Positions 483 through 31,727 of a DNA stretch of 42,841 nt are shown here, piece after piece. A model generated the notes under the pieces. It did no database searches. It saw only the letters and a program-made list of their open reading frames with translations, and was not told the origin of the DNA. A program made the position numbers and the translations under genes. Source of the stretch: a virus (taxonomy: Duplodnaviria; Heunggongvirae; Uroviricota; Caudoviricetes); the IMG/VR virus record IMGVR_UViG_3300030019_000001; one strand, given 5' to 3'. Every line of letters begins with the position of its first letter. Position 1 is the stretch's first letter.

Positions 483-737
483 ATGAAAAGATTAAATAAA
501 TTCAATGAGAATTTATTATTAAAAAAATACGTATATAAATACGATGATTATTACTTTTATATTGATGATGTTATTGGCGAAATGTTAGTATTGGACATAG
601 AATATGCTAGAACATTTTCAGAAAAAGAAATAAAATACTACGATATGGATAAAACTATCAATGAATATGATATGATATTGAATCAAGAAGATGAAGAAAT
701 AGAAATCACACACACATTTGAAAAAATAGAATTATAA
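483..737 (+). CDS. Hypothetical small acidic protein (85 aa from the ATG at 483). The track ORF 378-737 starts inside AT-rich promoter-like DNA that overlaps the divergent lysozyme start.
   Basis: Open frame; MKRLNKFNENLL... start; ATGA overlap region with the next gene. Confidence 0.4.
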   Translation: MKRLNKFNENLLLKKYVYKYDDYYFYIDDVIGEMLVLDIEYARTFSEKEIKYYDMDKTINEYDMILNQEDEEIEITHTFEKIEL

Positions 738-740
738 TTA

Positions 741-1391
741 ATGATAACAAATTTTAAAAATTTTAATATGAATGAATCTCTATCAAATTTTGATTTGAGC
801 AAATTGGTAACAATAATAGCAATCAATAAAGATCCAGAAGGTAACTGGATTTATAAGACAGACAACAGGATAGAATATATTCTACCAAAAGAACAAGCAG
901 GTAAATTGACATTGATAGATGACAAATTTGCAAACTTTGTAAACTCAGGACACCCAATAACTAAATATTTTGAAACGACTGATGGTAATATCATATCATA
1001 TGTTGCAAATTTCGCAGTTGATGCAGTGGCTTTAAGAGAGGGTAGAGTTTATCTGATAGAAAGGCAAGACGGTAGGGGTTGGGCTTTACCAGGAGGCTTT
1101 ATTGATGCAGGAGAAACACCACAGCAAGCCGTTCTCAGAGAACTAAATGAAGAAACAAAGGCAAAGAGTGATGATATAAAAAACATTGAACCTTTACCTA
1201 TGATTAGAACTAATGATCCTAGGGAAATAAACTTTTTTACATTTCCATTTGTCATTCACATAAAAAACACATCTGAACTATCATTTGATGATGATGCAAA
1301 AAGTGGAAAGTGGATGTTATTAAATAGGGCATCAAAATCACAATTAGCATTCACTCATCACAATGACATTCTAAAAAAAGTATCATTCTAA
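741..1391 (+). CDS. NUDIX hydrolase (possible mRNA-decapping or nucleotide pyrophosphatase type)
   Basis: Nudix box GGFIDAGETPQQAVLRELNEETKA (GX5EX7REUXEEXGU) preceded by REGRVYLIERQDGRGWALPGG. The N-terminus MITNFKNFNMNE carries the recurrent N-terminal motif. Confidence 0.8.
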   Translation: MITNFKNFNMNESLSNFDLSKLVTIIAINKDPEGNWIYKTDNRIEYILPKEQAGKLTLIDDKFANFVNSGHPITKYFETTDGNIISYVANFAVDAVALREGRVYLIERQDGRGWALPGGFIDAGETPQQAVLRELNEETKAKSDDIKNIEPLPMIRTNDPREINFFTFPFVIHIKNTSELSFDDDAKSGKWMLLNRASKSQLAFTHHNDILKKVSF

Positions 1392-1393
1392 TC

Positions 1394-1729
1394 ATGAAAA
1401 AAGTTTATAAATTTGAAGAATATTATAATTACACAAATGATAAAGCTCCAACTTATAACATAGGAGATTATATTCTTGTTTCTAAACAATTAACGAAAAA
1501 AACATACCTAAAAGGCAAATTTATAATTGAAGAAATCGAGTATATAGACTATCTTGATGAATATCAATATGTTGCTTGGGATGGAGTAAAATCGCCAACA
1601 AATATTGGTCAAATTGCAATAATAAGTGGAAAAAGATGTGTATTAGATAAAGACATTAAAAGAAAACTCACACCAGCAGAAATTGAAGAATTTGAGGTTA
1701 GAAAAAATACAAAAAAATACAATATCTAA
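1394..1729 (+). CDS. Small protein, terminal-cassette family A (MKKVYKFEEYY... IGDYILV ... KNTKKYNI-stop)
   Basis: N-terminal MK..K.FE motif, K(V/I)GDY(V/I) motif, C-terminal KKYNI. Paralogous to 28082-28429 and 28426-28767. Confidence 0.6.
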   Translation: MKKVYKFEEYYNYTNDKAPTYNIGDYILVSKQLTKKTYLKGKFIIEEIEYIDYLDEYQYVAWDGVKSPTNIGQIAIISGKRCVLDKDIKRKLTPAEIEEFEVRKNTKKYNI

Positions 1730-1740
1730 TTAGATATTGT
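1719..1740. terminator. Perfect 22-nt palindrome ACAATATCTAATTAGATATTGT spanning the stop of 1394-1729 and lying just before the stop of the convergent gene 1747-2223
   Basis: Read directly from the sequence; it sits between convergent stops. Confidence 0.5.
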
Positions 1741-1746
1741 ATTTTT

Positions 1747-2223
1747 TTATAAATTAAATTTTAAAGTATCTTTATAAAAATTAAAATGCTCCACATTCAC
1801 ATCAGAAATAATTTTGTTTATATCATTCTGTTTAATAACAGTTGAAAAACTATAATACTCGCCATAATCTTCTTTTGATGACATAAGATGTCTTAAAAAT
1901 AATAGAGCAGTGTTCCATTTATCTTTATGATATGTTTTTACTGATTTACCCCAATGAAAATCTATTTTAATATCAGTATTGTTGGTTATAGTAAAAAGAA
2001 TATAAAAAATAACATCAAATTCTGAAGTAGGATAACTAAATCTATTAATAGTTATCATATATTCATAATCAGGAGGAGAATTAGTCGAATAAAACAAGTT
2101 ACTATCAGCACTCTTCAAAAATTCAACAATTTTATCACCTAACTTAATTACTTTATAGTGAGTATCAAGGTGAGATAAAAATTCTTCAGTGTAGACTACA
2201 TGTTCTTCATATTTTCGAATCAT
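1747..2223 (-). CDS. Hypothetical protein with C-terminal ...KFNL (terminal-cassette group B)
   Basis: 158-aa ORF; C-terminus DTLKFNL-stop; start MIRKYEEH overlaps the stop of the upstream paralog via TGATTTATGA. Confidence 0.5.
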   Translation of the reverse strand: MIRKYEEHVVYTEEFLSHLDTHYKVIKLGDKIVEFLKSADSNLFYSTNSPPDYEYMITINRFSYPTSEFDVIFYILFTITNNTDIKIDFHWGKSVKTYHKDKWNTALLFLRHLMSSKEDYGEYYSFSTVIKQNDINKIISDVNVEHFNFYKDTLKFNL

Positions 2224-2226
2224 AAA

Positions 2227-2703
2227 TCAAATATTGAATTTTTTTGTATTATTTGAAAAATCATACTCCTTGATTGATAATTTTGTTATTAAATATGGGA
2301 TATCATCAATATCAACTGAACCACAAAAAGTATAATATTGTCCAGTTATATCATATGGTAAAAGTATATTTTTAATAAACAATAAGAATTTTTCACATCT
2401 TATCATATCTGTTATACTATTACCACTTTTAACTTCTATAGTAACATATGGATCATAAATAGAATATGAATCATATTCAACTAATTCAGATTCACAATTT
2501 TTAATCTCAAATGTAATGTAAAAAATTTTACTAAATGTATAATTGTCTTTATAAAAAATCAACTGATATTTATCATCTGAAAACCATTTTGATTCACAAT
2601 TAATATGCTCACCTTTCATTATATGTAAAAAAGTTCTAAGTATAGTTTTTGCTAATTTTTCTATATTATTATTTAAATTATACCTATTATAACTATCTAT
2701 CAT
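2227..2703 (-). CDS. Hypothetical protein with C-terminal ...KKFNI (terminal-cassette group B)
   Basis: 158-aa ORF of the same length as its neighbour; C-terminus NNTKKFNI-stop. Confidence 0.5.
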   Translation of the reverse strand: MIDSYNRYNLNNNIEKLAKTILRTFLHIMKGEHINCESKWFSDDKYQLIFYKDNYTFSKIFYITFEIKNCESELVEYDSYSIYDPYVTIEVKSGNSITDMIRCEKFLLFIKNILLPYDITGQYYTFCGSVDIDDIPYLITKLSIKEYDFSNNTKKFNI

Positions 2704-3500
2704 TTCAATTTATTTATTTTATCCTGAGATTTTTTGATTGAAATTTCAGCAGACTTTATTCTATCTTGTTTCCAATTTATATTTCTTTTTTTCCAATTAT
2801 CAATTCTACTATCAACATATTCTTTATTTCCTTTTTCCCAACTTTCTTTTGTGTTGTTCTGTTTAGCATAAGAATCAGAACTCAATGTTTCCCAAGTAGT
2901 CAATAAATGCCTACCATATTCTTCTTTAGATAATAAAATAAATATTTCTTCATCAGTCAATTTAATTGATTCTGAAATTTCTTTTTCACAAGAAGAAATT
3001 ATTGTTTTGTCATATTCTATATCCTTTTGAAGTTTTTCAATTTTATTTAATTTCTTAATTTTTTCTGAATAAAGAGAAGTCAGTTCAGAATTGTTAGTTT
3101 GAGGTAAAGTAGTTTTTGTGATATATCTATAATGAGCTTTTTGAATATTATAACCACCTGCAATTATAACTTCAGTAGAGAAATCATGAAGAATACCATC
3201 TCTTTTTATTTCTGAAATAATCTCCAAATTTCCTTTGTTGGAATATCTAGTTCTCAAATTAACAAGTTTATCTGTGGGTTTAGTATATTTTTCAATTGAT
3301 TTAACCAAATCAAATATTAAATATAGTAGAGTATTTTCTTTTTGAAATTCTGTGAAATACCTACCAGTTTCTTCAAAAAAACTTTCTTCGTATTTAATCA
3401 GTAAATCCTCCAATGTTGGTTCTATTATAGTAATGATCTTTTCAATTAGCTCATTTTTATGATTCATAACCGAAAAACTATTATAATTTAGAATGCTCAT
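2700..3500 (-). CDS. Hypothetical protein (266 aa, K/E-rich, predicted coiled-coil segments)
   Basis: Long ORF with an ATG start; overlaps its neighbour by 4 nt. Confidence 0.5.
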   Translation of the reverse strand: MSILNYNSFSVMNHKNELIEKIITIIEPTLEDLLIKYEESFFEETGRYFTEFQKENTLLYLIFDLVKSIEKYTKPTDKLVNLRTRYSNKGNLEIISEIKRDGILHDFSTEVIIAGGYNIQKAHYRYITKTTLPQTNNSELTSLYSEKIKKLNKIEKLQKDIEYDKTIISSCEKEISESIKLTDEEIFILLSKEEYGRHLLTTWETLSSDSYAKQNNTKESWEKGNKEYVDSRIDNWKKRNINWKQDRIKSAEISIKKSQDKINKLK

Positions 3501-3585
3501 GATAATATTTTTTAATTATTAATTATATACAAAGATAATACTTAATCATGTGATAATCAAAAATGTTTTTATATTTTAAGAATTT

Positions 3586-4818
3586 TTAATCAATGTTACT
3601 ATTAATATACAAAGTCTCAACGTTTTTCAATTTTTTAGTTGACGTGGAGTCATCTTTATTATCATATATCACATCATTTTTCAATGAATTATCAACTTTT
3701 TTAGACTCATTATATAATTTTTCCATCACTAATTTATTATTTACTATAACATTATCTTCAAATAATTTTTCATTATTTAATTTATTATTTACTATAACAT
3801 TATCATCAAACAATTGTTCATTATTTAATTTGTTATCTGAAACTGCATTTTTATATAAATCTTCATTGGTTAATTTATTATTTACTATAAAATTATCATC
3901 AAATAATTTTTCATTGTTTAATTTGTTGCTCACTAAAACTTTACCGTCAAATAATTGTTCATTGATTAATTTGTTATCTGAACCTATATTTTTATATAAA
4001 TCTTCATTAGTTAATTTATTATCTAAAATTGTATTTTTATATAAATCTGCATTAGTTAATTTGTTGGTAGAATCTATATTTTTATATAAATCTGCATTAG
4101 TTAATTTGTTGGTAGAATCTATATTTTTATATAAATCTTCATTAGTTAAATTGTTGGTAGAATCTATATTTTTATACAAATCTGCATCAGTTAAATTGTT
4201 GGTAGAATCTATATTTTTATACAAATCTTCATTCACTAATTTGTTATCTGAACCTATATTTTTATACAAATCTTCATTCACTAATTTGTTATCTGAACCT
4301 ATATTTTTATATAAATCAGCATTTATTAATTTATTATCTGAACCTATATTTTTATATAAATCTTCATTTGTTAATTTGTTGACTGAATCTATATTTTTAT
4401 ACAAATCACTATTAGTTAATGAATTATCTATTTTATTATTATTGTATAATATTTCATTTTTTGGAGTTTTAATTATATCTATATTATTAAATAGTGATTT
4501 ATTACCTGGTGTTTTAATCACTGATACATTATTAAATACAATTTCTTTATTTGGTGTTTTATTCCTTTCTACAATCAATTCAGATTTTCCAGTCACATCA
4601 TCATTTACACCAAATTTATACATGGATTTATTTGGAGTATTGGTTCTTCCTGTGACAATCTCAGAATAACCTGTAACATCACCCAAATTTTTTATTCTGG
4701 TTATTTTTGAAACTGGTTGAGTATATACAGTTTCTTTATTCGGTGTTAATCCTAATAGTCCATGATTATTAACAATAATTTTATCAATTACATTATCATT
4801 TTTACTTTTTTTACCCAT
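3586..4818 (-). CDS. Tandem-repeat protein with about 20 copies of a 15-aa unit (consensus L-T-N-E-D-L-Y-K-N-I-D-S-T-N-K) plus degenerate N- and C-terminal repeats
   Basis: Translation shows NEDLYKNIGSDNKLV / NADLYKNIDSTNKLT repeated. The DNA has 45-nt tandem repeats. Confidence 0.7.
   Translation of the reverse strand: MGKKSKNDNVIDKIIVNNHGLLGLTPNKETVYTQPVSKITRIKNLGDVTGYSEIVTGRTNTPNKSMYKFGVNDDVTGKSELIVERNKTPNKEIVFNNVSVIKTPGNKSLFNNIDIIKTPKNEILYNNNKIDNSLTNSDLYKNIDSVNKLTNEDLYKNIGSDNKLINADLYKNIGSDNKLVNEDLYKNIGSDNKLVNEDLYKNIDSTNNLTDADLYKNIDSTNNLTNEDLYKNIDSTNKLTNADLYKNIDSTNKLTNADLYKNTILDNKLTNEDLYKNIGSDNKLINEQLFDGKVLVSNKLNNEKLFDDNFIVNNKLTNEDLYKNAVSDNKLNNEQLFDDNVIVNNKLNNEKLFEDNVIVNNKLVMEKLYNESKKVDNSLKNDVIYDNKDDSTSTKKLKNVETLYINSNID
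3633..4470. repeat. Coding 45-bp tandem repeat array (about 18-20 copies, most perfect around 3990-4400)
   Basis: Repeated ...tctatatttttatataaatct(g/t)cattagttaatttgttggtagaa... units are visible in the sequence. This produces the spurious antisense ORF 3593-4669. Confidence 0.8.
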
Positions 4819-5263
4819 TTCCGTTTAATTTTCTTTTCTTAATCATTTCTTCAATATATTGATCTGTAGGTAATTTAATATTTGGATCTATTTTTTTAAT
4901 AGTTTTATCAGAATTATCTTTAATACCTTCTTTTTCATTAATCTCTTTTACTATAGAAGCTAAATAATTTTCTGGACTCATTCTAGAATCATCATCAGTA
5001 TATATCATAGAATAAATAGTATCATCATTAAATATATAAAATTCTTTTGATGATAAAGTAAAATCTTGATAAAATATTAATTTTCCTATTGAACCATATG
5101 TCATAACTTGTGTACCTGTCATTTCCAAATATTTATTCATGAATGGATCTTTAATTCTAACAGTTTCTTGCTTCAAATCAATAAAATTAACACCCAAATC
5201 CATTTTAAATATTGGAATCTTTCTAAATATATTCAACATTTGTGTGTTTGATACTATTGTCAT
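4811..5263 (-). CDS. Hypothetical protein (150 aa)
   Basis: ORF with an ATG; 8-nt overlap with the downstream gene. Confidence 0.45.
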   Translation of the reverse strand: MTIVSNTQMLNIFRKIPIFKMDLGVNFIDLKQETVRIKDPFMNKYLEMTGTQVMTYGSIGKLIFYQDFTLSSKEFYIFNDDTIYSMIYTDDDSRMSPENYLASIVKEINEKEGIKDNSDKTIKKIDPNIKLPTDQYIEEMIKKRKLNGNG

Positions 5264-5814
5264 TGTGTATAAACATTATCTTTTAAATCATTTTGATCTG
5301 TTCCCTTATCATCTGATTTGTCTTTCAATTGACCTAATTTATCAATAATAAAATCTTCTTTTATATCTTCAACATCAACTTCTTCTACCAATTCACCCTT
5401 TTCTTCCATTTCATCATTGAATTGGTGAATTTTAAGCAATATTTTATTTATTTCTAATGCTTTACCTTCAGCTGGAGTTTCAACAGGAGCAGCTCCTTGT
5501 TCTTGTGATTGAGAATTATCAGAACCTTTCATCTCATCAAGTCTAACCATAAATATAACTCTATATCTAAAAAACGAATCCTCTTCTTCAGAATCTTTAT
5601 CTTTAGTTTCTTCAATAGGTTCAGAAAAATTAAAAATTAAAAATTTTTCCATTGGATTAGAATTTGAAATATCTATTTGTCCATCTAATGAGCAACCTTG
5701 AGCAGCTAATGAACCTTCATTAAACCATCTTTCAATTTGAGATTTCAATTCTTTAAAAAACACTGTTATTTTATAATCAGCAGATTCTACATATTCTTCA
5801 AAAAGTTTTTTCAT
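5260..5814 (-). CDS. Hypothetical acidic protein (184 aa, D/E-rich C-terminal half; N-terminus MKKLFEEYVES)
   Basis: ORF with an ATG; it carries the MK..FE-type N-terminus. Confidence 0.5.
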   Translation of the reverse strand: MKKLFEEYVESADYKITVFFKELKSQIERWFNEGSLAAQGCSLDGQIDISNSNPMEKFLIFNFSEPIEETKDKDSEEEDSFFRYRVIFMVRLDEMKGSDNSQSQEQGAAPVETPAEGKALEINKILLKIHQFNDEMEEKGELVEEVDVEDIKEDFIIDKLGQLKDKSDDKGTDQNDLKDNVYTQ

Positions 5815-5897
5815 TTATAATTATTATTATTTTAAAGTATATATAAAAAACACATCATAGAAAATAGTATAATTAAAAATTAATATATAATAGTCAT

Positions 5898-6221
5898 ATG
5901 AAACACATCAAATCATTTGAAGAAAAAATAAATAAAATATCAATAGATGAATTAAAAAATCATGGAATATCAAAAGATTCACCATTTTTGATTAGTGATA
6001 ATGAAAAATTACCAAAAGATACTAAATTTAAAATTGGAGATCATGTTAAAATAAATACAAATAACAATGAATATATCTACAAAATAGAATATTATTGTAT
6101 TGAAACTAAAAAATATACTTGCTTCATAACAATAGACACATTTTCAAGACAATGGATATATGAAGATGAATTAGAATTGGTTCCAGATTATGAAATATCA
6201 TCAAAAAAATTCAACATATGA
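5898..6221 (+). CDS. Small protein, terminal-cassette family A (MKHIKSFEE ... KIGDHVKI ... SSKKFNI)
   Basis: N- and C-terminal cassette; the stop TGA overlaps the next ATG (AACATATGAAA). Confidence 0.6.
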   Translation: MKHIKSFEEKINKISIDELKNHGISKDSPFLISDNEKLPKDTKFKIGDHVKINTNNNEYIYKIEYYCIETKKYTCFITIDTFSRQWIYEDELELVPDYEISSKKFNI

Positions 6222-6586
6222 AATATATTAAGAAATATGAGAACATAGATGAACATGTTAATGCAGAAGGTAAATTTTGGGAAATAAATACAGATGAACC
6301 ATATTTTGAAATCTCATTAAATAAACTTGGTTTTGATGAAGAGTTAAAGGAAAAAATATATGGAATGAATAACTCCTACATAAAAAATAGTGGATTAGTT
6401 TATATTTATATTATTAAAACAAATTTATCATACTTAGGCACATCAGTAACATGGAGTCATGTTACTGATTTCATAAAAGATACTGCAATAGAAAACGGTA
6501 ACAAATATATGGGAAAAGTTGAAATAACCGAAGATGATATTAAAAAATGGAATCTAATTAAAAAGACACAAAAATTCAACTTATGA
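6218..6586 (+). CDS. Small protein, terminal-cassette family A (MKYIKKYEN ... KKTQKFNL)
   Basis: Same cassette; ATGA overlap on both sides. Confidence 0.6.
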   Translation: MKYIKKYENIDEHVNAEGKFWEINTDEPYFEISLNKLGFDEELKEKIYGMNNSYIKNSGLVYIYIIKTNLSYLGTSVTWSHVTDFIKDTAIENGNKYMGKVEITEDDIKKWNLIKKTQKFNL

Positions 6587-7215
6587 AATACTTAAAAACA
6601 TATGAAGAAGGAATATCATCAGGTAATGCATCTGGAAAGGCAGGAGTAGGTTCGATTCCGTTTGGTAGAGGATATATGCAATCTGGTGGTAATAATGGAG
6701 CCAGTGGCATTGTATTCACTGCTGTTGGAGAACCATCATTCACCACATATAAAAGTATGAAGCATTCAAAAAAAGAATTAAAAGAGAAAAGAAGAAGACT
6801 TAGAATGTTCAAGAAATTCAGAAATGAAGGATTCATATCAGAAAAAATAGATGATTCTGGTTGGAATTGGGGAATAGTAAACAATGATAAAAATATTGGA
6901 AAATATATTATAATGAAAGATTCTGAAGAGTATTCATTCGCTTCAACCAAAGGAATAAGAAAAGAATTAGATACATTTGTTCAGAATAATACCGGAGAAA
7001 TAGTTTTATCAAGAAAATCAGCAGTTGGAATTTCTTATTTGATAAAATATGAAAATATACCAGACAATTTGAAAGAGCAATTTAAATCTTGCAATTTTTT
7101 AAATGATGAAGAAAATATATATTTACCTATAATAAAAAGACATAACAAAATTGAATTTATAGGTTCAAAAGAAGAATGTGAAATTAAAATATCAACAAAA
7201 AAATACAATATATAA
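6583..7215 (+). CDS. Terminal-cassette family A protein (210 aa; MKYLKTYEE ... Gly-rich GNASGKAGVGSIPFG ... ISTKKYNI)
   Basis: Cassette termini; shares the Gly-rich G..G.GSIPG segment with 7218-7610. Confidence 0.6.
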   Translation: MKYLKTYEEGISSGNASGKAGVGSIPFGRGYMQSGGNNGASGIVFTAVGEPSFTTYKSMKHSKKELKEKRRRLRMFKKFRNEGFISEKIDDSGWNWGIVNNDKNIGKYIIMKDSEEYSFASTKGIRKELDTFVQNNTGEIVLSRKSAVGISYLIKYENIPDNLKEQFKSCNFLNDEENIYLPIIKRHNKIEFIGSKEECEIKISTKKYNI

Positions 7216-7217
7216 AT

Positions 7218-7610
7218 ATGAAAAAATTTGAAGAATTTATGAAAGAAGATGCGTGTGCCACTCTCGGTAACACAGGAGGTATGGGCGCTATTGTAGCTGC
7301 TCAACCAGGAAGTATTCCTGGAACTCAAGGTACCACTGGCTCTGGTGATATTAGTCAAACTCTTGCCACATATTCTAAACCTGCTATAAATATGAAAAGA
7401 CATAAGAAAAACAAGAAAAATAAACTAAGAAAAGTAGAATCATTTGATGGTTTCATGAAGGAAGAAAATGAGATAATAGATAATTTCACAGCAAGATATT
7501 ACGACAATTATGATGACGAAGAAGAACCAAGTTATGAAGTAAATTTACAAGACATAGAAGAAAACAATATCAAAAAAATTCAAATGTACGAAAAAGATGA
7601 AAATAAATAA
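7218..7610 (+). CDS. Family A-related protein (MKKFEEFMKE ... GNTGGMGAIVAAQPGSIPGTQG ...) lacking the KFN(I/L) end
   Basis: Paralogous N-terminal half with 6583-7215. The C-terminus KDENK overlaps the next ORF by 14 nt, so this may be a frameshifted or fused family member. Confidence 0.45.
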   Translation: MKKFEEFMKEDACATLGNTGGMGAIVAAQPGSIPGTQGTTGSGDISQTLATYSKPAINMKRHKKNKKNKLRKVESFDGFMKEENEIIDNFTARYYDNYDDEEEPSYEVNLQDIEENNIKKIQMYEKDENK

Positions 7611-7893
7611 ATTTAACCAACTAAATGAATCAGATGAAATATCATACAATAAATCATTAGGATATGATAACTCAATGTTTGATAGTCTATCTGAATTGTA
7701 TAAATTATGGACAGACGCTGAAGGCTTATCTCATTTTTCAGCGGATGAATACGGATCAGAAGATTTGACAGATAAACAAATAGATTATTTAGAAAATTTT
7801 AATGATTTTTTGGAATTAACTCAAGACTTTGAACAAGATTATCATGAAAATGGTTATGCTTTAATTAAAAAAACAAAAAAATTTAACTTATAA
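7597..7893 (+). CDS. Small acidic protein ending ...KKTKKFNL (family A C-terminal cassette); the N-terminus MKINKFNQLNE contains an internal KFN remnant
   Basis: ORF; C-terminal cassette. Confidence 0.5.
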   Translation: MKINKFNQLNESDEISYNKSLGYDNSMFDSLSELYKLWTDAEGLSHFSADEYGSEDLTDKQIDYLENFNDFLELTQDFEQDYHENGYALIKKTKKFNL

Positions 7894-7999
7894 AATATGG
7901 ATAGCATAAGATCAAAATATCAGAAATATGGTGTTAAAAATTATTAAAGTGATAAAATACGCATCAAGTTTTTATATCACCGTAAATTAATATCAATTT

Positions 8000-8887
8000 T
8001 TATTTTTTATTCATATGAAAACAAATCTCGTTTAACCAACCACTTTTATATGATTTAGAATACGCACTAATAGATTTCATATAAAATTCAGATCTAGTCT
8101 TATATTTTAATGCTTCTATTTGACATAATTCTTTTGTCCAATAACCATTTGGTTTTACTAATGGTGTCATATGCAAACATATTTCTTTTAACCATTTATT
8201 TTTTAATGAAATTGTATATGCTGATGCTGATTGTTTTTTAAATTCAACTTTTGTATTAAATTTATTTGCTTCTATTTGACATAATTCTTTTGTCCAATAT
8301 TTTTTACCACCTGTTCCTCCTGTTTTACACTTATTTAAAATTTTCCAATCATTATTTTTATATTTATTAACATAATCCTCTTCTAATATTTTTGATAAAT
8401 AAACATCAATATATTCACTTAATTTTTTAAATTTATAATTATTATTTTTTTGTATATGTTCATAAACTGAGCCTTTTCTTAAATGTTCATTAAATCGTCT
8501 ATCTAAATCACAAGTCAATCCAATATATGCATAGTTATCAGAAAATTCATAAACATAAATACATCTTTTATATAAATCACCCATACACTTCATATGTGAG
8601 CATATTTCATCTATCCATCCATATATTAATGATTTACCATAAATATAACTTGAATTTTTCCTAAATTCATTTCTACTATTAAACTTCAAAGATTCTTTTT
8701 GACAAAAATCTTTTGTCCAGATATATGATTTATTTTTTCTCATATGAGCACAAACATCAAATATCCAATTATTTCTAATTGAGATTCCATATACTTGTTT
8801 ACATTTTATCCTAAATTCTTTTTTAGTTTTATATTTTAATGCTTCTTCAGTGCATTTTTCAATAGTCCATATTTTTTTATCTATCAT
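8000..8887 (-). CDS. GIY-YIG family endonuclease (homing-endonuclease-like) with two N-terminal and two C-terminal ~43-aa W.(K/E).C..E(A/S)LK(Y/F)..R.EF.......Y.....W..EIC.HM repeats
   Basis: Core CIYVYEFSDNYAYIGLTCDLDRRFNEHL (GIY...YIG...R...E). Repeats WTIEKCTEEALKYKTKKEF..., WTKDFCQKESLKFNSRNEF..., WTKELCQIEANKFNTKVEF..., WTKELCQIEALKYKTRSEF... Confidence 0.8.
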   Translation of the reverse strand: MIDKKIWTIEKCTEEALKYKTKKEFRIKCKQVYGISIRNNWIFDVCAHMRKNKSYIWTKDFCQKESLKFNSRNEFRKNSSYIYGKSLIYGWIDEICSHMKCMGDLYKRCIYVYEFSDNYAYIGLTCDLDRRFNEHLRKGSVYEHIQKNNNYKFKKLSEYIDVYLSKILEEDYVNKYKNNDWKILNKCKTGGTGGKKYWTKELCQIEANKFNTKVEFKKQSASAYTISLKNKWLKEICLHMTPLVKPNGYWTKELCQIEALKYKTRSEFYMKSISAYSKSYKSGWLNEICFHMNKK

Positions 8888-8983
8888 ATAAGTTATTTTT
8901 AAGTATATATTAAAAACTAATTATCATAAACTAAATAAAATAAAAATAATTAATTTTATATATAATAAAAATAATTAATTTTA

Positions 8984-9532
8984 ATGAAACACATCAAATC
9001 TATACATGAACATGGAATTAGAGATGAATACACAAAAATTGGTATTAAAAAATATTATACTGATAATAAAGAAACATATATTAATCCGCATGAAGATAAT
9101 ATCAAATTAGTATTGAATTGGTGTTTAAAAAAAATTAATATAACAAACTTTATTGATTTGTCATGTGGCAATGGAGAAATAACCAAATATTTATCTAAAA
9201 ATGGAATAATTGATGCAATTGGCACAGATCCATATTTTAATAATATTTATACAAAAAAAACAGGAAATGAATGTTTAAAACTTTCATTCGAGGATATAGC
9301 AATACATGGATTAAATTTACACAAACAAACAATTATCTGTTCGTATGCACTTCATCTATGCACCAACTCATATTTTAATCAGTTGATGTATAATTTATCA
9401 TTAAACTGTAAATATTTCATTTTAATATCACCAAGTAAATACCCAATCATCACAGAAGATTATTTTGAATTTATTGATGGAATAATTATCAATAGAACAC
9501 ATTGTAAAATATATAAAAGTAAAAATAATTAA
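8984..9532 (+). CDS. Putative class-I SAM-dependent methyltransferase-like protein
   Basis: Motif I-like IDLSCGNGEITKYL, then IIDAIGTDP and IICSYALH. N-terminus MKHIKSIHE. Identification rests on the motifs only. Confidence 0.4.
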   Translation: MKHIKSIHEHGIRDEYTKIGIKKYYTDNKETYINPHEDNIKLVLNWCLKKINITNFIDLSCGNGEITKYLSKNGIIDAIGTDPYFNNIYTKKTGNECLKLSFEDIAIHGLNLHKQTIICSYALHLCTNSYFNQLMYNLSLNCKYFILISPSKYPIITEDYFEFIDGIIINRTHCKIYKSKNN

Positions 9533-9601
9533 ACAATAACATTTTTTCTAAACAATTATAATAAAAATTCATATAATATTATAAAATAAAAATATAATAT
9601 A

Positions 9602-10594
9602 ATGGACTATAATAAGGATTATTATAAAGATCTAGGATTAAATAAAGATTCATCTGATGAAGAAATCAAAAAGAAATATCGAAAATTAGCATTAAAACAC
9701 CATCCAGATAAAAATCAAGGTGACAAAAATAGTGAGGAAAAATTCAAAATCATATCAGAAGCATATGAAGTATTATCTGACGATACAAAAAAGCAAGAAT
9801 ATGACACAAGAAGTCCTAATGGTAAATCATATTCATCATTCAATTCAAGTTTTTTTGGTGGTGGGCAAGACATATTCTCTCATTTCTTTGGTGAAAATAG
9901 TCCATTTGGTAATTTTTTTAGATCAGAAGAATTCACTGAGCAATTAGATATCAGTATAAATGTCAATATAGATTTTAAGCAAATATACAAAAATGATAAA
10001 ATTACAATAAAATATAAGAAATTTATAAATTGTGATGAATGCGATGGCACAGGATTTGATAAATCTGGAGAATCATATGATTGTGTTGTATGTGATGGTA
10101 CAGGAATAAATAACAACAGAGATTGTGAATATTGTCAAGGAACTGGAAAAATACACAGCGGAAAATGTAAAAAATGTAATGGAGAAAAAGTAATCATAAA
10201 AGAAACAGAACTACTTTTACAAAATATTTCAGAAATTAGGGGATCAAACAGAAATGTTCAATATGGTTATGGTAGTCAATCAAAATACTACAAAGATAAA
10301 GTAGGTAGCCTAATTTTAAATATAAACAGTATAAATAACAGTAAATGTAACATTATAAATAATTATGATTTGATATCAACATTAGACATACACTTTCAAG
10401 ATGCTATTGATGGAAACAAAATAAATTATACACACGTTGATGATTCAAAATTAGAAATAAAATTACCAAATAAAACTAAAAATAACGACACAATAAAAAT
10501 AAAAGAAAAAGGTTTATTGAAGCAGGATGGTAAACGTGCAGATTTATATTTAAAAATAAATATAATCATAGACTATGATAAATTAAATATATAA
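9602..10594 (+). CDS. dnaJ: DnaJ/Hsp40 type-I co-chaperone (J domain, G/F region, four CxxCxGxG zinc-finger repeats, C-terminal domain)
   Basis: [33 protein letters not shown] (HPD), a FGG/FF-rich linker, then [32 protein letters not shown]. Confidence 0.85.
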
Positions 10595-10613
10595 ATAAAA
10601 ACAATTACATAAT

Positions 10614-10898
10614 ATGAAAAGAAATGATTTTGAAGTAGCAGCGGGCTTATTATATAGAATTAATAATACAGAAAAAACAATTTTTGAATTACAGGCAATC
10701 AACAAATGCAATGAATTTAAAATAATAGGAATAAATTCAATCAATGGTTTCAGAGTTGGAGATGTTGAACTAAACACAGGTGATATATCAACTGAAGTTT
10801 TCTCTCAAGATATTCTTGAATATTTCATAAATACTTTAAATTTGGAACTAAACGAATTAAGAGAAAATTTTGATAAGTTATTTTCAAACGAAGAATAA
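10614..10898 (+). CDS. Hypothetical protein (94 aa)
   Basis: ORF with an ATG; it ends immediately before the large inverted repeat. Confidence 0.45.
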   Translation: MKRNDFEVAAGLLYRINNTEKTIFELQAINKCNEFKIIGINSINGFRVGDVELNTGDISTEVFSQDILEYFINTLNLELNELRENFDKLFSNEE

Positions 10899-10903
10899 TA
10901 TTT

Positions 10904-10956: not shown

Positions 10957-10959
10957 GTG

Positions 10960-11448
10960 TTAATTTTCTTTTTCATTATCAAATATTTCTTGTAATTTAA
11001 GTTTACGTACAATTCTTTTAGAATCAGATAATATTTCATCTTTTGATTTATAACAAATAATATTATTCAAATCAACATATAATCTATCACAGCATATTGA
11101 ATGTCTACGATATGAACGATTATCATAAGGTATATAATCATCATAATACATTGGTTTACATATTATATAATTAAGATCAAATTTAAGTAAATATCGATAT
11201 TTAGGTTTGATTTTTGTTATTATTTCAGAATAAATATCATTCCAATCTTCACCTATTTTAGAATTTATAAATTCTTCTAAAGGTTTAAAATTATAATTGT
11301 GATATCTATTGTAATATATGCAATTTATTGATTGATGAGTAGGCAAATCTGAAAACAAATCAATATTATTATTACGTCTTGTTTTTGTGTATTGTTTATC
11401 TATACTTGTATTTCTACATTTTCTATATAAAAATTTATCTTTAAGCAT
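10960..11448 (-). CDS. Hypothetical protein (162 aa, Cys/Tyr-rich)
   Basis: ORF with an ATG. Confidence 0.45.
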   Translation of the reverse strand: MLKDKFLYRKCRNTSIDKQYTKTRRNNNIDLFSDLPTHQSINCIYYNRYHNYNFKPLEEFINSKIGEDWNDIYSEIITKIKPKYRYLLKFDLNYIICKPMYYDDYIPYDNRSYRRHSICCDRLYVDLNNIICYKSKDEILSDSKRIVRKLKLQEIFDNEKEN

Positions 11449-11462
11449 AAATAGTCAAATTT

Positions 11463-14718: not shown

Positions 14719-14721
14719 AAT

Positions 14722-28081: not shown

Positions 28082-28429
28082 ATGAAATATTTAAAAAATT
28101 TTGAAAATGAATTAACCACTGAATATAAAGTAGGTGATTATGTATCAATTAACTATGATACAAAATCTAACACATTAACAAAGTTGAAGGATTTTGTGAA
28201 TAATTCGATAGGAAAAATAATGTTTATTGATGATAAAAGTATGATTATTCAATATGTTAATATTCCAGATAAAATAAAACATTTTTTTTCTGATAAAAAT
28301 GTTGGAAAAGATAAAATAAAAAATTCTGTATTTTTTTGGAATAAAAATAATACAATAAAAAGATTAGCAACAGATGATGAGATAATAGAATATGAAGCAA
28401 TTAAAAATACAAACAAATTTAACATATGA
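28082..28429 (+). CDS. Small protein, terminal-cassette family A (MKYLKNFENELTTEYKVGDYVSI ... KNTNKFNI)
   Basis: Cassette termini; close paralog of 28426-28767. Confidence 0.6.
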   Translation: MKYLKNFENELTTEYKVGDYVSINYDTKSNTLTKLKDFVNNSIGKIMFIDDKSMIIQYVNIPDKIKHFFSDKNVGKDKIKNSVFFWNKNNTIKRLATDDEIIEYEAIKNTNKFNI

Positions 28430-28767
28430 AGCACTTAAGATTATTTGAAAGCCAACTAAAGCCTAAATATAAAGTAGGAGATTATGTTCATTTAGATATG
28501 GAGCCAGATTTTACTTATGATGATTGCTTAGGACAAATACTTAAAATAGATAAAAACGGATTCATAAACGAACCTGAAGAAACAGATTCAAATAAAAAAC
28601 ATGATAATTATATTAACACATTAAATCTTTACCCATATAAAGTTAAAATATTGGATGGTAAATTCGATGCTGAAGAAGGCTTAATAGATAGATATATGAA
28701 AAAAGATGAAATAGAATATTTTGAGTATTTATTAAAGAATAAAGATACTAAAAAATTTAACATATGA
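28426..28767 (+). CDS. Small protein, terminal-cassette family A (MKHLRLFESQLKPKYKVGDYVHL ... KDTKKFNI)
   Basis: Cassette termini; ATGA overlaps on both sides. Confidence 0.6.
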   Translation: MKHLRLFESQLKPKYKVGDYVHLDMEPDFTYDDCLGQILKIDKNGFINEPEETDSNKKHDNYINTLNLYPYKVKILDGKFDAEEGLIDRYMKKDEIEYFEYLLKNKDTKKFNI

Positions 28768-29021
28768 GCAAATTAATAAATGATATACATAAAATGTTGG
28801 GTTATCTTAAAATAATACAACAATATAATTATTTTTCACAATTAGGAAATGAAGATGATATCGACTATTTAAAAGATAAAGTTGATAATTTATATTATAT
28901 AGATGACACAGATAAACTTATAAAAGATTTTGAATGGTGTGCAGATATGGTAAATCAACTTTATGATCAAGTTGATTCAGAATTTAAAAAGAGAATGTTA
29001 ATCGAAGAACAACTATACTAA
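28764..29021 (+). CDS. Small acidic protein (85 aa; MSKLINDIHK...)
   Basis: ORF starting at the AACATATGA junction; its stop is inside the hairpin. Confidence 0.45.
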   Translation: MSKLINDIHKMLGYLKIIQQYNYFSQLGNEDDIDYLKDKVDNLYYIDDTDKLIKDFEWCADMVNQLYDQVDSEFKKRMLIEEQLY

Positions 29022-29047
29022 AAAAGTCAGATTTAATCTGACTTTTT
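29021..29047. terminator. Perfect 12-bp-stem hairpin AAAAAGTCAGAT-tta-ATCTGACTTTTT bridging the two convergent stop codons (29019-29021 and 29050-29052)
   Basis: Read directly; A-tract and T-tract symmetric arms. Confidence 0.65.
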
Positions 29048-29049
29048 AT

Positions 29050-29523
29050 TCATCTACCATATCTTTCACCAGGATATTTCTTATCTATTTCTTTAAACAT
29101 ATCATAAGAACGTTTAAATAATTCAAATTTATTTTCTATGAAATCGTCTACATCTTCTTTTGTTGAACTAACAATATCAAAATGATTTTTAATAGATTGT
29201 GGAAGATTGTTCATGTAATTCCTTATCTGATCTGTACTATAGTTAGGAAATTTAGGATTATAATCATTTACTGCTCCAATTAAAGCATTAACAGTATATT
29301 GATCATTGTAGTTTTTCAATAAATCACCCATTAGATTTATTTTTCTTTCTTCATTTTTTTCTCTTTCCACAGTATAAGCGTTTGATGTTATTCCTTTTAC
29401 GCTTGGATTTTTTTCAAATTCTTCATCAGAAATCTTTTTTTTGTGATTACCACCAATATCACCACCCTGAGGAAATTCAATTTTTTCTTTTACATATTCG
29501 CCAAAATCTACTAATTTTTTCAT
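29050..29523 (-). CDS. Hypothetical protein (157 aa; N-terminus MKKLVDFGEYVKE)
   Basis: ORF with an ATG. Confidence 0.45.
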   Translation of the reverse strand: MKKLVDFGEYVKEKIEFPQGGDIGGNHKKKISDEEFEKNPSVKGITSNAYTVEREKNEERKINLMGDLLKNYNDQYTVNALIGAVNDYNPKFPNYSTDQIRNYMNNLPQSIKNHFDIVSSTKEDVDDFIENKFELFKRSYDMFKEIDKKYPGERYGR

Positions 29524-29542
29524 TATTATTTATGTTTTTTTT

Positions 29543-29887
29543 TTATATATTAAATTTATTTGTAGTGAATAAAAAATTCAACTCATCAAAAGTTTTTATC
29601 ATCCAATTATTTCTATTAGCCCATTGGTGATCATTGTATTTGTGTATTACAATATCTAATCTATCGTTGGCTAATTCAATTGTAGTAAAACTTTCAATGT
29701 TGGTATTTTTCTTTTTAAGGATATCTATATTACTTGAATCAATTTTGTCAGTAAGAACAAATTCTTCAATTCCAAGAATTATTTTATATAATATAAAATA
29801 ATCTCCTTCATCTGGTTTGAATAAAACTAAGAAATATTTTTCTTTTTCTTTTTTTCTTTTAAATATATTAAATTTTTCAATTATCAT
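29543..29887 (-). CDS. Terminal-cassette group B protein (about 115 aa from ATG MIIEKFNIFKRKKEK...; ends FTTNKFNI). The track ORF extends to a TTG at 29932, through a duplicated copy of the start region.
   Basis: C-terminal KFNI; the N-terminus lies inside a 52-bp tandem duplication. Confidence 0.5.
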   Translation of the reverse strand: MIIEKFNIFKRKKEKEKYFLVLFKPDEGDYFILYKIILGIEEFVLTDKIDSSNIDILKKKNTNIESFTTIELANDRLDIVIHKYNDHQWANRNNWMIKTFDELNFLFTTNKFNI

Positions 29888-29950
29888 AATTATATATTTT
29901 CTTTTTTCTTTTAAATATATTAAATTTTTCAATTATCATAATTATATATT
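29856..29950. repeat. Two direct copies of a 52-bp unit (ttttcttttaaatatattaaatttttcaattatcataattatatatt) duplicating the 5' end and start codon of gene 29543-29887
   Basis: Copy 1 is at about 29856-29898 and copy 2 at about 29908-29950. Each contains the reverse-complement ATGATAATTGAAAAATTTAATATATTTAAAAG. Confidence 0.8.
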
Positions 29951-30373
29951 AAATTTTCTTGTTGATATTATCCATGATGGAGTATAATTTACAGCATTTA
30001 AAAATAAATAGTATGAAAAAATGAAATATGAACTTTTCCAAACCAGTGATGTTTTATTTGTATATTCTTCTATTTCATAATATAATTTTGGTGTTTCTTC
30101 TATTTTCGTTATCACAGAATCTAATGTATATTTTTTTACTTCTCTTTGTATTTTTTTATTTGTTTTTTTATTATCTGTTTTCCAAATATATGGATATTTA
30201 TACATAAATATTAATAGTGCGAATTCATCATAACAAGAATATGGTATACCTCTATATGTGAAACTATCAGTTATATTTTCTTCATATTTCTTTTTATATA
30301 TTTCTTCATAATTATTTAGAAATTTTTCAGTATCAGAACTAATTTTTATAGAGGAATTTATTTTTGAGTTCAT
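29942..30373 (-). CDS. Hypothetical protein (143 aa) ending ISTRKFNI (terminal cassette)
   Basis: ORF with an ATG; C-terminal KFNI immediately followed by the duplicated start region of the next gene. Confidence 0.5.
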   Translation of the reverse strand: MNSKINSSIKISSDTEKFLNNYEEIYKKKYEENITDSFTYRGIPYSCYDEFALLIFMYKYPYIWKTDNKKTNKKIQREVKKYTLDSVITKIEETPKLYYEIEEYTNKTSLVWKSSYFIFSYYLFLNAVNYTPSWIISTRKFNI

Positions 30374-30455
30374 ATATTATTTTTATTTATAATTATATTT
30401 CGCAAAGATACAAAAAAAATATAACCTTTACTAATAATTATCATCTTTTATATTA

Positions 30456-30893
30456 TTATAAGTTGAATTTATTTGAGATTCTTGTTAAATTCATTTCATT
30501 GATTACTTTTTTCTGTTTTTCTGTAATATTACCATAAATAGTAAATGATGATTTATTGTCAACATGGTAAATATAATTATCATTTGTAGTTAATATTAAT
30601 GATAATAGAACAAATATTCTTTTCTTGTGTTGTAAAGTGCCTTGATATCCAGTCGTACACTCTGTTATGGTGTTGATTCTACCTTTAACTATTTGAGGTA
30701 CATCTATAAAAATATTTTTTTCTTTATCATAACAATTCTTACAATTAAATTCAACTAATGTATCAACTATCAACAAATTACTAAGAAATTTTTTAATTTT
30801 CGTGTAACTACCAGAATAGTAATTTAACAAATCATTTAGTATGAATGTTGTTTCGGTTTCTGTATTTTCAAATATTTTGAAATTTATAATCAT
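30456..30893 (-). CDS. Terminal-cassette group B protein (MIINFKIFENTE ... EFNCKNCYDKEKN ... TIYGNITEKQKKVINEMNLTRISNKFNL)
   Basis: Clear paralog of 31308-31727 (same N-terminus, CxxC, TIYGNI and C-terminus). Confidence 0.6.
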   Translation of the reverse strand: MIINFKIFENTETETTFILNDLLNYYSGSYTKIKKFLSNLLIVDTLVEFNCKNCYDKEKNIFIDVPQIVKGRINTITECTTGYQGTLQHKKRIFVLLSLILTTNDNYIYHVDNKSSFTIYGNITEKQKKVINEMNLTRISNKFNL

Positions 30894-30894
30894 A

Positions 30895-31311
30895 TTAATT
30901 AATTTTTTTCCTTAAATAATTAAAAACAATTTCAAAAAATATCAGTTTAATTGAAAATGCCAACATAACAAACCAAATAGATGTATTCAATGTGATTATA
31001 ACAGATGCAAGAATCATAGTTATTTCAGATATAAACCAAAATAAATGCCATGCATCAGTAAACACAACAAAAATAGTAGTACTTCCTATGAATTTTTCTC
31101 CATTTAATGGATTGGCATTTTTATATTTATTGAGAGACCCCAATCCTTGTTCCCAAAATTTTGGATTTAATTTATATTTTAAATATAATCTTGACTTGTA
31201 AAATAAATTAGGAGAAGATGATATATCAGTTATAGATTTAGATATACCAGATATTAATAATAAAAAAAGTATTATTAAAATGTTTAAAATTGCTGAAGTA
31301 GTTAGTATCAT
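30895..31311 (-). CDS. Predicted multi-pass membrane protein (138 aa) embedded between two group B paralogs
   Basis: Hydrophobic segments MILTTSAILNILIILFLLLISGI and ITMILASVIITLNTSIWFVMLAFSIKLIFF; its start overlaps the KFNI-TGA of the upstream gene. Confidence 0.5.
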   Translation of the reverse strand: MILTTSAILNILIILFLLLISGISKSITDISSSPNLFYKSRLYLKYKLNPKFWEQGLGSLNKYKNANPLNGEKFIGSTTIFVVFTDAWHLFWFISEITMILASVIITLNTSIWFVMLAFSIKLIFFEIVFNYLRKKIN

Positions 31312-31727
31312 ATGTTAAATTTATTTGCTTGTCTTTTTATATTAATATCATTTATTATTTTTTTTATATCACCAGGAATATTTCCATAAATTGTCATCTG
31401 AGAATTTGTGTCTACTATATGACTAAATTTTATTCTTTTCAATCTCAATGTTAAGTATATATGTTTAAGATCATAATTAAATCCATAACTTCTACCGTTT
31501 ATAATTCCTTTATGATGTTTATTTGAATGTATAAAATTTGTAACACCATTTATATCATCTGTACATTTATTACAATTAAATTCAACAATGTTATTGTTGA
31601 AATTAAATAATTTGAAAATGAAATTTCGTATTGAATCTTCATGACTATCAAAGTAATCTACAATATCATCCAATACCAATGTGACTTTATCATCTGAGTT
31701 CTCGAATAATTTGAATTCTGTTATCAT
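31308..31727 (-). CDS. Terminal-cassette group B protein (MITEFKLFENSDD ... EFNCNKCTDDING ... TIYGNIPGDIKKIINDINIKRQANKFNI)
   Basis: Paralog of 30456-30893. Confidence 0.6.
   Translation of the reverse strand: MITEFKLFENSDDKVTLVLDDIVDYFDSHEDSIRNFIFKLFNFNNNIVEFNCNKCTDDINGVTNFIHSNKHHKGIINGRSYGFNYDLKHIYLTLRLKRIKFSHIVDTNSQMTIYGNIPGDIKKIINDINIKRQANKFNI

Follow-up and report, generated by a model that had tools for sequence, protein, structure and literature searches.

The internal proteins of bacteriophage T4 share a 10-residue capsid targeting sequence (CTS), through which they dock to the prohead core and which gp21 cuts off after Glu (PMC9026906, PMC3012670, PMC10229621, PMC5694885). The CTS is carried by IPI, IPII, IPIII and Alt (Mullaney & Black 1996, as reviewed in PMC9026906, PMC3012670 and PMC5694885). 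Its residues 4 and 7 serve targeting and residues 8 and 10 processing, and Alt, an ADP-ribosyltransferase, is processed at both ends (PMC9026906). Head proteins of phiKZ, 201phi2-1 and SPN3US are likewise substrates of a gp21-like protease, which cuts after Glu and depends on few other determinants (PMC5694885, PMC9026906), and gp53 and gp54 of SPN3US have identical first 15 residues at an overall identity of 34% (PMC5694885). Here we describe a pair of terminal peptide motifs in a 42,841-nucleotide stretch of phage DNA (Caudoviricetes; IMG/VR record IMGVR_UViG_3300030019_000001; hereafter the window) and in related loci. The first is an N-terminal motif (N-tag) whose short register reads M-K-[YH]-[IL]-K-x-[FY]-E-[NES], and the second is a C-terminal motif (C-tag), [TSA]-x-K-[FY]-N-[IL], followed directly by the stop codon.

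The window comes from a member of the Mahaphage group of huge phages. The only matches of its 717-residue protein (15387-17540, minus strand) are in the 735-kb uncultured phage LR756501/LR756503 and in LR756504, genomes of the 'Mahaphage' clade with predicted Bacteroidetes hosts (PMC7162821). No Shine-Dalgarno signal was found ahead of the window genes, consistent with the predicted host.

The T4 CTS has the pattern M-K-T-[YF]-[QK]-E-F ... [IL]-x-E, of which M1, K2, a hydrophobic position 4, (K5) and F7 recur in the N-tag. The CTS is a 10-19-residue propeptide at the N-terminus of otherwise unrelated, rapidly diversifying proteins, a setting that the N-tag appears to share; the CTS ends in Glu, where the prohead protease cuts, and the megaphage tag also ends in a near-invariant Glu. 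An ADP-ribosyltransferase is among the T4 carriers (Alt) and an ADP-ribosyltransferase (ART)-like protein among those of the window, and a gp20/gp21/gp23-type head module, with a weak match for the protease, is seen in sister Mahaphage genomes. The two signals are not the same in sequence, however: the short megaphage form has its Glu at position 8 and mostly lacks L/I at P3, and it is coupled to a second, C-terminal tag without Glu. There are four carriers in T4 and tens to probably more than 100 per megaphage genome, where they lie in overlapping tandem arrays. The ejection and inner-body propeptides of phiKZ, 201phi2-1 and SPN3US are similar in that paralogous head proteins have conserved N-termini, but they are mostly longer than 100 residues, have neither a common short consensus nor a C-terminal tag, and belong to another lineage.

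Two terminal motifs are coupled on a large set of proteins

The N-tag occurs in two registers, the short form given above and a type-2 form that is longer by one residue, M-I-x-x-F-K-x-[FY]-E-N. The called window proteins total 12,497 residues and contain the core hexapeptide [ILVF][KR].[FY]E[EN] eight times, in each case at ORF (open reading frame) residues 2-5. A position-specific scoring matrix (PSSM), trained solely on N-termini of other contigs that had been picked by their C-terminal motif, gave 17.0-21.6 bits for eight window N-termini (6218, 31308, 5898, 741, 30456, 28426, 6583 and 28082; genes are named by their lower coordinate, Table 1) and 9.4 bits for 19487. Elsewhere in the window the maximum was 10.8 bits at 11,209 internal positions and 2.0 bits at 145 internal Met positions. 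None of 200,000 random N-termini of matching N-terminal composition reached 17 bits, their 99.9th percentile being 7.6. The motif thus passes the null comparison called for by an initial annotation of the window. This annotation, which had described recurrent decapeptides on at least 14 proteins, with a positional regularity that looked stronger than composition alone would give, was therefore right on the motif and about right on the number, as approximately 15 window proteins have some form of the N-tag. A chance likeness stemming from a bias towards AT-rich codons (K, N, I, F, E) would suit the 22-29% G+C of this genome, in which MK- starts are common on untagged ORFs too. This explanation is refuted by the scores of shuffles and random N-termini, which never reach those observed, and by the distribution of matches, internal occurrences being at chance level and terminal ones 30- to 600-fold enriched; we give it virtually no credence.

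Individual carriers named in the initial annotation fared differently. The NUDIX enzyme (741) is among the eight high-scoring proteins, and its orthologues down to 66% identity retain MI[TIK]x[FY]xx[FY]. The methyltransferase-like protein 8984 (MKHIKSIHE) is not a carrier: its N-terminus scores -2.8 bits (p ~0.03-0.05), and its orthologue starts MDSIRSKYQKYG. The N-termini of 5260 and 29050 fail the gapless PSSM (p ~0.01-0.04), resemble only the longer variant found on 7218, with YVE and VKE sites, and remain ambiguous; that of 5260 is conserved in orthologues, within a protein that is 70% identical overall. Six further window N-termini are degenerate or shifted in register (1394 MKKVYKFEE, 1747 MIRKYEE, 2227 MIDSYNRYN, 7597 MKINKFNQ, 29543 MIIEKFNIF and 7218 MKKFEEFMKE) and were placed in the tag set because of their C-terminal motif and orthologues.

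The C-terminal motif, which the initial annotation did not contain, ends 13 window ORFs, and 13 of the 15 occurrences of [KR][FY]N[IL] in the window are exactly C-terminal. Related loci in IMG/VR and metagenomes were found via a family-A protein, the NUDIX gene and a junction DNA pattern; they were chosen for containing tagged genes and total 1.1 Mb. A first pool held 310 ORFs (the window and the first related loci) and the full pool 1,183 ORFs from 138 loci. In the first pool the N-motif was present on 59 ORFs versus 2.0 expected by shuffles and the C-motif on 70 versus 0.12, with internal occurrences at the shuffle level, and the two co-occurred with an odds ratio of 54 (p = 3e-30). The full pool contained 286 ORFs with both ends, 53 with the N-motif only, 95 with the C-motif only and 749 with neither, and defining the set by the motif of one end recovered the motif of the other end as its consensus. 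Both ends are kept in homologues at 36% identity. Glu8 is invariant in 235 tags that had been selected for the canonical register, and in the independent set defined by the C-tag it is the commonest residue at position 8 (269 of 381).

The N- and C-motifs are terminus-specific and mutually coupled. A very large set of proteins thus has a genuine bipartite tag at its termini, a finding larger than the one in the initial annotation. No description of either motif was found in the searchable literature, including searches with the peptide strings NKFNI, KKFNI and MKYIKKFE, and Pfam and PHROG scans of ten capped window proteins returned no family for the ends.

The two tags differ in their range. 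The C-tag is essentially limited to the 22-26% G+C clade of the window, contigs of which were obtained from peat/wetland samples, whereas the published genomes of 642 kb and 735 kb commonly have an N-tag without a C-tag (MKHLKKFESY, MKYLKIFEDF, MRYLKYFEDL and MITKYNIFEN, the last on an 843-residue protein). In a 30-kb segment of the 642-kb genome (LR756502:65303-95443) about 12 of about 60 ORFs begin with an N-tag and none ends in a KFN[IL] C-tag. Lineage-specific variants of the C-tag were uninformative as a test of co-evolution, since a mixture of FNI, FNL, YNI and YNL occurs in most loci, L007 alone being uniform.

Unrelated domains lie between the conserved ends

When their termini were trimmed, the 434 capped ORFs fell into 133 BLAST clusters, the largest with 126 members. 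The Pfam domains found between the caps in relatives are Ank, LRR_4 and Methyltransf_24 (a class-I methyltransferase), while NUDIX is the Pfam domain that stands behind an N-tag only (741), and domains have evidently been shuffled between the caps. Families A and C differ in their barrel cores, SH3-like and Sm-like, each followed by a C-terminal helix. In two AlphaFold models the N-tag has a predicted local distance difference test (pLDDT) score below 50, and the C-terminal helix runs into the C-tag. The model of 28082 has an SH3/KOW-like barrel as its core, and its residues 1-11 and 113-115 have pLDDT values below 50. Because unrelated domains lie between the caps and the N-tag is disordered in the models, the ends behave as add-on linear motifs. 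Pairing of the N- and C-termini as β-strands was considered and rejected, given the pLDDT below 50 of the N-tag in both models and the position of the C-tag at the end of a helix.

These data also bear on the possibility that the carriers form one very divergent paralogue family, with termini conserved for structural reasons (mutual pairing or oligomerization) and not as addresses. Several carriers are indeed BLAST-detectable paralogues, the largest trimmed cluster is sizeable, families A and C are both small β-barrels followed by a C-terminal helix, and the arrays are tandem and translationally coupled. However, the same ends occur on ankyrin, leucine-rich repeat (LRR) and class-I methyltransferase proteins, the N-tag alone precedes a NUDIX domain, the predicted disordered N-tag makes no contact with the C-terminus in either model, and proteins of up to 843 residues in sister clades have an N-tag but no C-tag. 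We regard a single family as unlikely. The initial description of the carriers as otherwise unrelated holds in that truly unrelated Pfam domains are present, but overlooks that most of them share the C-terminal motif and that some are paralogues.

The ends are selected as peptides

Synonymous codons within the N-tag follow genome-wide usage (AAA 84%, TTT:TTC 30:4, GAA 91%). Position 4 is encoded by eight different codons in which all three codon positions vary while the residue stays aliphatic, and replacements throughout the tag are conservative (F/Y, I/L/V/M, Y/H). The initial annotation had offered two explanations for the N-terminal motif, a downstream promoter or translation element and a sorting or processing tag. 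The codon data do not support the former, which is also countered by the coupling to the other end of the protein (odds ratio 54) and by the recurrence of the motif inside longer proteins. The latter is favored by the unrelated domains, the predicted disorder, the near-invariant Glu and the likeness to the T4 CTS and to the propeptide ends of head proteins of this lineage.

The C-tag, in addition, has preferences at the nucleotide level: it favors AAC as its Asn codon and, at its end, ATA or TTA with TGA as the stop. Asn is encoded by AAC in 46% of cases versus 14% in the background, and Ile by ATA in 85% versus 46%. An ATGA-type overlap ends 209 of 386 C-tagged genes, 171 of these overlaps starting an N-tagged gene, and the preference for ATA or TTA with TGA is consistent with this frequent overlap onto the next start. 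The AAC excess persists (34%) at C-tags without an overlapping downstream start. The junction AAATTYAAYWTATGAAAYAY has five matches in the window versus 0.44 expected, and the junction pattern is present on at least 115 IMG/VR stretches, on contigs of up to 330 kb.

The overlaps, the recurrent junction, the codon bias of the C-tag and the shuffling of domains between the caps could mean that the ends are mainly nucleic-acid features, either translational coupling and re-initiation junctions or homologies for duplicating and swapping cassettes by recombination. Yet the C-tag is present to the same extent on genes without a gene behind them (TAA stops, convergent neighbors), N-tag codons are those of the background, F/Y and I/L/V/M swaps are tolerated, and the tags recur inside ORFs. 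We consider a mainly nucleic-acid role improbable, slightly more so than a single protein family. The background codons of the N-tag, the conservative replacements and the presence of the C-tag without a following gene show that the ends are selected as peptides, the junction being additionally shaped by translational coupling. Junction and recombination elements probably contribute to the spread of the cassettes, with recombination between the ends likely a by-product and not the reason for their retention.

Stop-codon recoding or read-through was rejected, as the large ORFs are open in the standard code, read-through of TGA would add only 3 residues, and TGA and TAA are equally frequent after the C-tag. 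Between the convergent genes 1394-1729 and 1747-2223 lies a perfect 18+18-nucleotide inverted repeat (window 1712-1747; AAAAAATACAATATCTAA followed by TTAGATATTGTATTTTTT). It encodes ...KKYNI-stop on both strands, so that the codons of the C-tag double as a terminator-like hairpin.

Likenesses to a capsid-protein arm and, more tentatively, to a scaffold tail

In the T4 genome (AF158101), IPI starts MKTFKEF, and IPII and IPIII start MKTYQEFIAE. By the megaphage tag matrix IPI, IPII and IPIII are the top 3 of 36 T4 ORFs, with a positive score for IPI alone.

A candidate connection with the head is provided by 7218. Its first 49 residues (MKKFEEFMKE-DACATLGNTGGMGAIVAAQPGSIPGT..GSGD) match a 560-residue ORF of LR745206 (tblastn, 46% identity over 56 residues) that encodes a gp23-type major capsid protein (PF07068, E 2e-26) and adjoins a T4-type portal gene (PF07230, E 3e-57). 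The alignment sets the Met of 7218 on a Met of the capsid protein within ...WMSEYAEFHSINE/NAYANASNVSGMGAVVAAQP...GSGDVGQNLLPVAMK, the aligned stretch including GSGD. The slash stands at the counterpart of the maturation site of T4 gp23 (LTE/AEIGG...GYNATNIAAGQ). A search of 1.84 billion representatives recovered a family with the layout of tag, capsid arm, poly-Lys and variable domain, comprising 165 clusters at 50% identity (E <= 1e-3). Tag and arm are joined by [ILF]-x-E-[DNEG] in 103 of 135 representative clusters (shuffle mean 16, maximum 27), with the junction Glu 10-13 residues from the tag Met. Judged by sequence, the 7218-type junction appears to match both the length and the cleavage rule of the T4 CTS, and 7218 appears to link the tag to the capsid protein. 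Modules of tag and arm also recur within longer proteins, after Lys-rich linkers, the tag motif standing directly before a conserved segment.

Directly upstream of the LR745206 capsid gene is encoded a 707-residue protein whose N-terminus weakly matches Peptidase_S77 (E 0.005). As a 79-sequence profile it aligns to residues 40-121 of T4 gp21, including GE.(N/D)HP, and the rest of this putative protease-scaffold protein consists of coiled-coil repeats and an acidic region; phmmer against PDB sequences gave no match. Examination by eye revealed that the protease-scaffold proteins begin MKPVLIVEN (LR745206 type) or MIKNVLIVEN (LR756501), which share the M-K and M-I registers and the Glu-Asn with the two tag forms, a weak hint of a relationship. 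The LR745206 protein (L141:12699-14822) and its homologues contain about 14 tandem 14-residue units (NIAYSEYLAENLDK). Each unit has [LI]-A-E/N and Y-S-E/Y sites (slash after the Glu), so that the scaffold looks designed for cutting into short peptides.

In phage scaffolding proteins and in encapsulin cargo, a short C-terminal helix or tail suffices to keep a protein on the inner side of an HK97-fold shell. The megaphage C-tag resembles the conserved tail of the protease-scaffold of its own lineage, and we know of no sequence relationship between the C-tag and the P22 or phi29 scaffolds or encapsulin peptides. The protease-scaffold ends ...AIMERFKNI in 79 LR745206-like loci, and in other clades NRFKGI, KRRFNK, [KN]KRFNK, AK[KR]FKK or AAKFNK, but also KRLQR. 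Scored with an ungapped C-tag matrix, the scaffold tails have a median rank of 135 among 1,398 ORFs of the same loci, in the top ~10% (Mann-Whitney U test, p = 4.5e-14). The resemblance of the C-tag to the scaffold tail is suggestive but not decisive.

For the KFN[IL] clade itself, three approaches to the genes of capsid protein and scaffold did not recover them. The first, tblastn against the 1.1 Mb of loci from the clade, yielded a truncated gp23 paralogue and nothing else. Of three DNA patterns, one had no match, one matched only 7218 orthologues and one matched other clades, and a protein search returned 4,235 matches, among which the abundant LR745206-like group predominated. Related capsid proteins occur in cultivable phages, namely Flavobacterium phage MaF61, Tenacibaculum phages PTm1 and pT24 and Chryseobacterium phage MA9V. 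In locus L044 a truncated gp23-like paralogue (286 residues, 3384-4244) adjoins a 776-residue glycosyltransferase-like ORF (L044:699-3029, IMGVR_UViG_3300009502_001526) that, by eye, appears to contain an intein-like insert (...LPLCVPSGKL... to ...ATVHNCEAMACG...).

Head targeting is the favored function

We propose that the ends are head-targeting tags on packaged cargo and that the N-tag is probably processed by a protease, a reading to which we assign a probability of roughly 0.5. Both termini would be short linear address tags, acting at the protein level, that the megaphage lineage has attached to many unrelated cargo proteins. The N-tag would act like the CTS, as a disordered propeptide of ~8-13 residues through which the protein docks to the scaffolding core while the prohead assembles; a T4-type prohead protease would then probably remove it by cutting behind the conserved Glu. 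The C-tag, in which a helix leads into [TSA]-x-K-[FY]-N-[IL]-COOH, would imitate the tail of the protease-scaffold and make a second contact with the interior of the shell. The tagged proteins would travel inside the head and reach the host together with the DNA. In the window the predicted cargo includes small barrels, the NUDIX enzyme and the ART-like protein; in relatives it includes proteins with ankyrin repeats, LRRs or a methyltransferase domain. The steps of docking, cleavage, packaging and ejection are inferred. We propose more tentatively, as a possibility that we hold to be less than even, that a two-part postal code loads perhaps at least 100 fast-evolving, effector-like proteins per genome for co-injection and was built from the head's own assembly signals, the propeptide ends of the capsid protein and protease and the tail of the scaffold having been copied.

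Several points weigh against head targeting. Cleavage of the short tags is uncertain because P3 is usually K or T and not the L or I of the T4 rule, and because hydrophobic-x-Glu within residues 6-16 is present in only ~50% of C-tagged proteins, versus 28% of untagged ones. Tagged ORFs make up roughly one quarter of those in the sampled loci, a set selected for the presence of tags, and this would be an unprecedented number for packaged proteins. The likeness to T4 amounts to 4-5 residues in a K/F/E-rich context, and by the tag matrix only IPI is positive (+3.6), IPII and IPIII scoring -5.8. That to the scaffold tail amounts to 3-4 residues ([KR]-F-[NK]-x) with a register shift of one residue, and since the 78 scaffolds are mutually homologous the Mann-Whitney p overstates the evidence. 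The Peptidase_S77 match is below the Pfam cut-off, and the comparison of head genes is based on sister Mahaphage clades, whose capsid proteins are 52-76% mutually identical.

Short disordered peptides at both termini might instead be proteolysis signals or other intracellular sorting signals, such as Clp-type degrons or an address for a phage compartment, that time the removal or set the localization of early proteins. Some ClpX recognition signals are N-terminal Met-basic-hydrophobic or C-terminal basic-x-hydrophobic peptides, and the window encodes both a ClpS adaptor (PF02617, E 2e-15) and DnaJ. No tie between the motifs and Clp was found, however, and this explanation does not account for the link between tag and capsid arm, the [ILF]-x-Glu junction or the likeness to the scaffold tail. 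We judge it the most doubtful of the functional alternatives. Structural termini, degrons or other addresses, and junction or recombination elements are each less well supported than head targeting.

Gene content of the window

The window is densely packed with ORFs; its tagged and candidate genes are listed in Table 1. It encodes an SbcCD-like fusion protein, a RuvC-like resolvase, a collagen-like tail fiber, DnaJ, ClpS, a HAD phosphatase, two GIY-YIG endonucleases, the NUDIX enzyme and the ART-like protein. The untagged genes serve replication, repair, chaperone and tail-fiber functions; the tagged ones are effector-like. ClpS (40103-40396) and a full-length DnaJ (9602-10594; J domain, Zn finger and C-terminal domain) are both untagged.

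Table 1. Tagged and candidate genes of the window. PSSM scores are in bits.
Feature	Position	Strand	Basis
NUDIX hydrolase, type-2 N-tag MITNFKNFN, no C-tag	741..1391	+	Pfam NUDIX E 3.6e-17, residues 92-201; PSSM 18.4
Family-A small protein, degenerate N-tag MKKVYKFEE, C-tag KKYNI	1394..1729	+	BLASTP to 28082 E 1.7e-6; PSSM -1.4
158-residue protein, shortened N-tag MIRKYEE, C-tag LKFNL	1747..2223	-	Orthologues begin MIIKFEEH or MLRKYNEH
Paralogue of 1747, type-2-like MIDSYNRYN, C-tag KKFNI	2227..2703	-	Orthologues begin MIDKYDKYN or MMYNYNCYN
Acidic 184-residue protein, MKKLFEEYVE, candidate 7218-type variant, no C-tag, ambiguous	5260..5814	-	PSSM 0.6, p ~0.01-0.02
Capped protein, MKHIKSFEE and KKFNI, first gene of translationally coupled array (ATGA overlaps)	5898..6221	+	PSSM 19.3
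Capped protein, MKYIKKYEN and QKFNL	6218..6586	+	PSSM 21.6
Capped protein, MKYLKTYEE, Gly-rich arm-like segment, basic stretch, family-A domain, KKYNI	6583..7215	+	PSSM 17.4; alignment
Tag variant MKKFEEFMKE, copy of capsid-protein N-arm (ATLGNTGGMGAIVAAQPGSIPGT..GSGD), Lys-rich stretch	7218..7610	+	tblastn, alignment
Capped protein, shifted MKINKFNQ and KKFNL	7597..7893	+	phrog_9962 on middle part
Methyltransferase-like, MKHIKSIHE start, not a tag	8984..9532	+	PSSM -2.8
32-codon mini-ORF MKYLKMYEG...LKKYN-stop, almost only the two ends	19372..19470	-	Direct reading of sequence
ADP-ribosyltransferase-like, type-2 MIIEFKMYEN, no C-tag	19487..19840	-	PSSM 9.4, p ~4e-4
Capped family-A protein, MKYLKNFEN and NKFNI	28082..28429	+	PSSM 17.0; AlphaFold model
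Capped family-A protein, MKHLRLFES and KKFNI	28426..28767	+	PSSM 17.5
157-residue protein starting MKKLVDFGEYVKE, candidate long tag variant, no C-tag, ambiguous	29050..29523	-	PSSM -2.1, p ~0.03-0.04
C-tagged (NKFNI), N-terminus MIIEKFNIF	29543..29887	-	Orthologue begins MIVERFNIF
C-tagged (RKFNI), N-tag lost in this genome	29942..30373	-	Orthologue in L005 begins MITNFKIFEK
Capped family-C protein, type-2 MIINFKIFEN and NKFNL	30456..30893	-	PSSM 17.5; paralogue of 31308, E 7e-15
Capped family-C protein, type-2 MITEFKLFEN and NKFNI	31308..31727	-	PSSM within 17.0-21.6 group

Three of the listed assignments have limits or extensions. The match of 7597 to phrog_9962, a 59-position profile, covers just residues 27-77 (E 1.5e-7). 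The Pfam match of 19487 to ART-PolyVal (E 4.9e-4) is below the family cut-off. A homologue of the N-terminal module of 6583 is fused to a methyltransferase in locus L059.

Two sites in the window may be remains of cassettes. The mini-ORF at 19372-19470 is probably a decayed cassette. Ahead of the start of 28082, the sequence AAATTTAATATATGA (28071-28085) encodes KFNI-stop in another frame, and the upstream gene (27176-28078) is not a family member; this sequence is possibly the remnant of a deleted cassette.

A GIY-YIG gene (8000-8887, minus strand; PF01541) separates ORF 8984-9532 from a 5' methyltransferase remnant at 7897-7947. The remnant, 16 codons long (MDSIRSKYQKYGVKNY and stop), matches the start of the 8984 orthologue. 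It looks as though insertion of the homing endonuclease rebuilt the start of this gene and gave it a new N-terminus. The second GIY-YIG gene (31742-32920) also borders an array of capped genes. Elsewhere, a long protein (3586-4818) has an internal repeat of ~13 residues, NKL(T/V)NEDLYKNI(G/D)S, and the tail-fiber protein (37712-39352) has collagen-like GTSGTNG repeats; the repeats of both give long spurious ORFs on the opposite strand and in other frames.

Implications for huge phages

Whatever its function, the bipartite tag marks out a protein set of very large size that is apparently undescribed, with 434 distinct ORFs in 1.1 Mb of sampled loci. Huge phages have hundreds of small genes of unknown function, and the clade of the window is without a cultivated member. 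If head targeting is correct, a CTS-like system has been scaled up in these phages and given a second, C-terminal address. The tags might then serve as labels for loading foreign proteins into large capsids, a use to which the T4 CTS has already been put (PMC10229621). Patterns of nine and six residues would reveal from sequence which proteins travel in the particle and act first in the host. They would thereby yield a catalogue of candidate effectors of host takeover and anti-defense, and the 'ejectome' of uncultivated huge phages might become readable from sequence.

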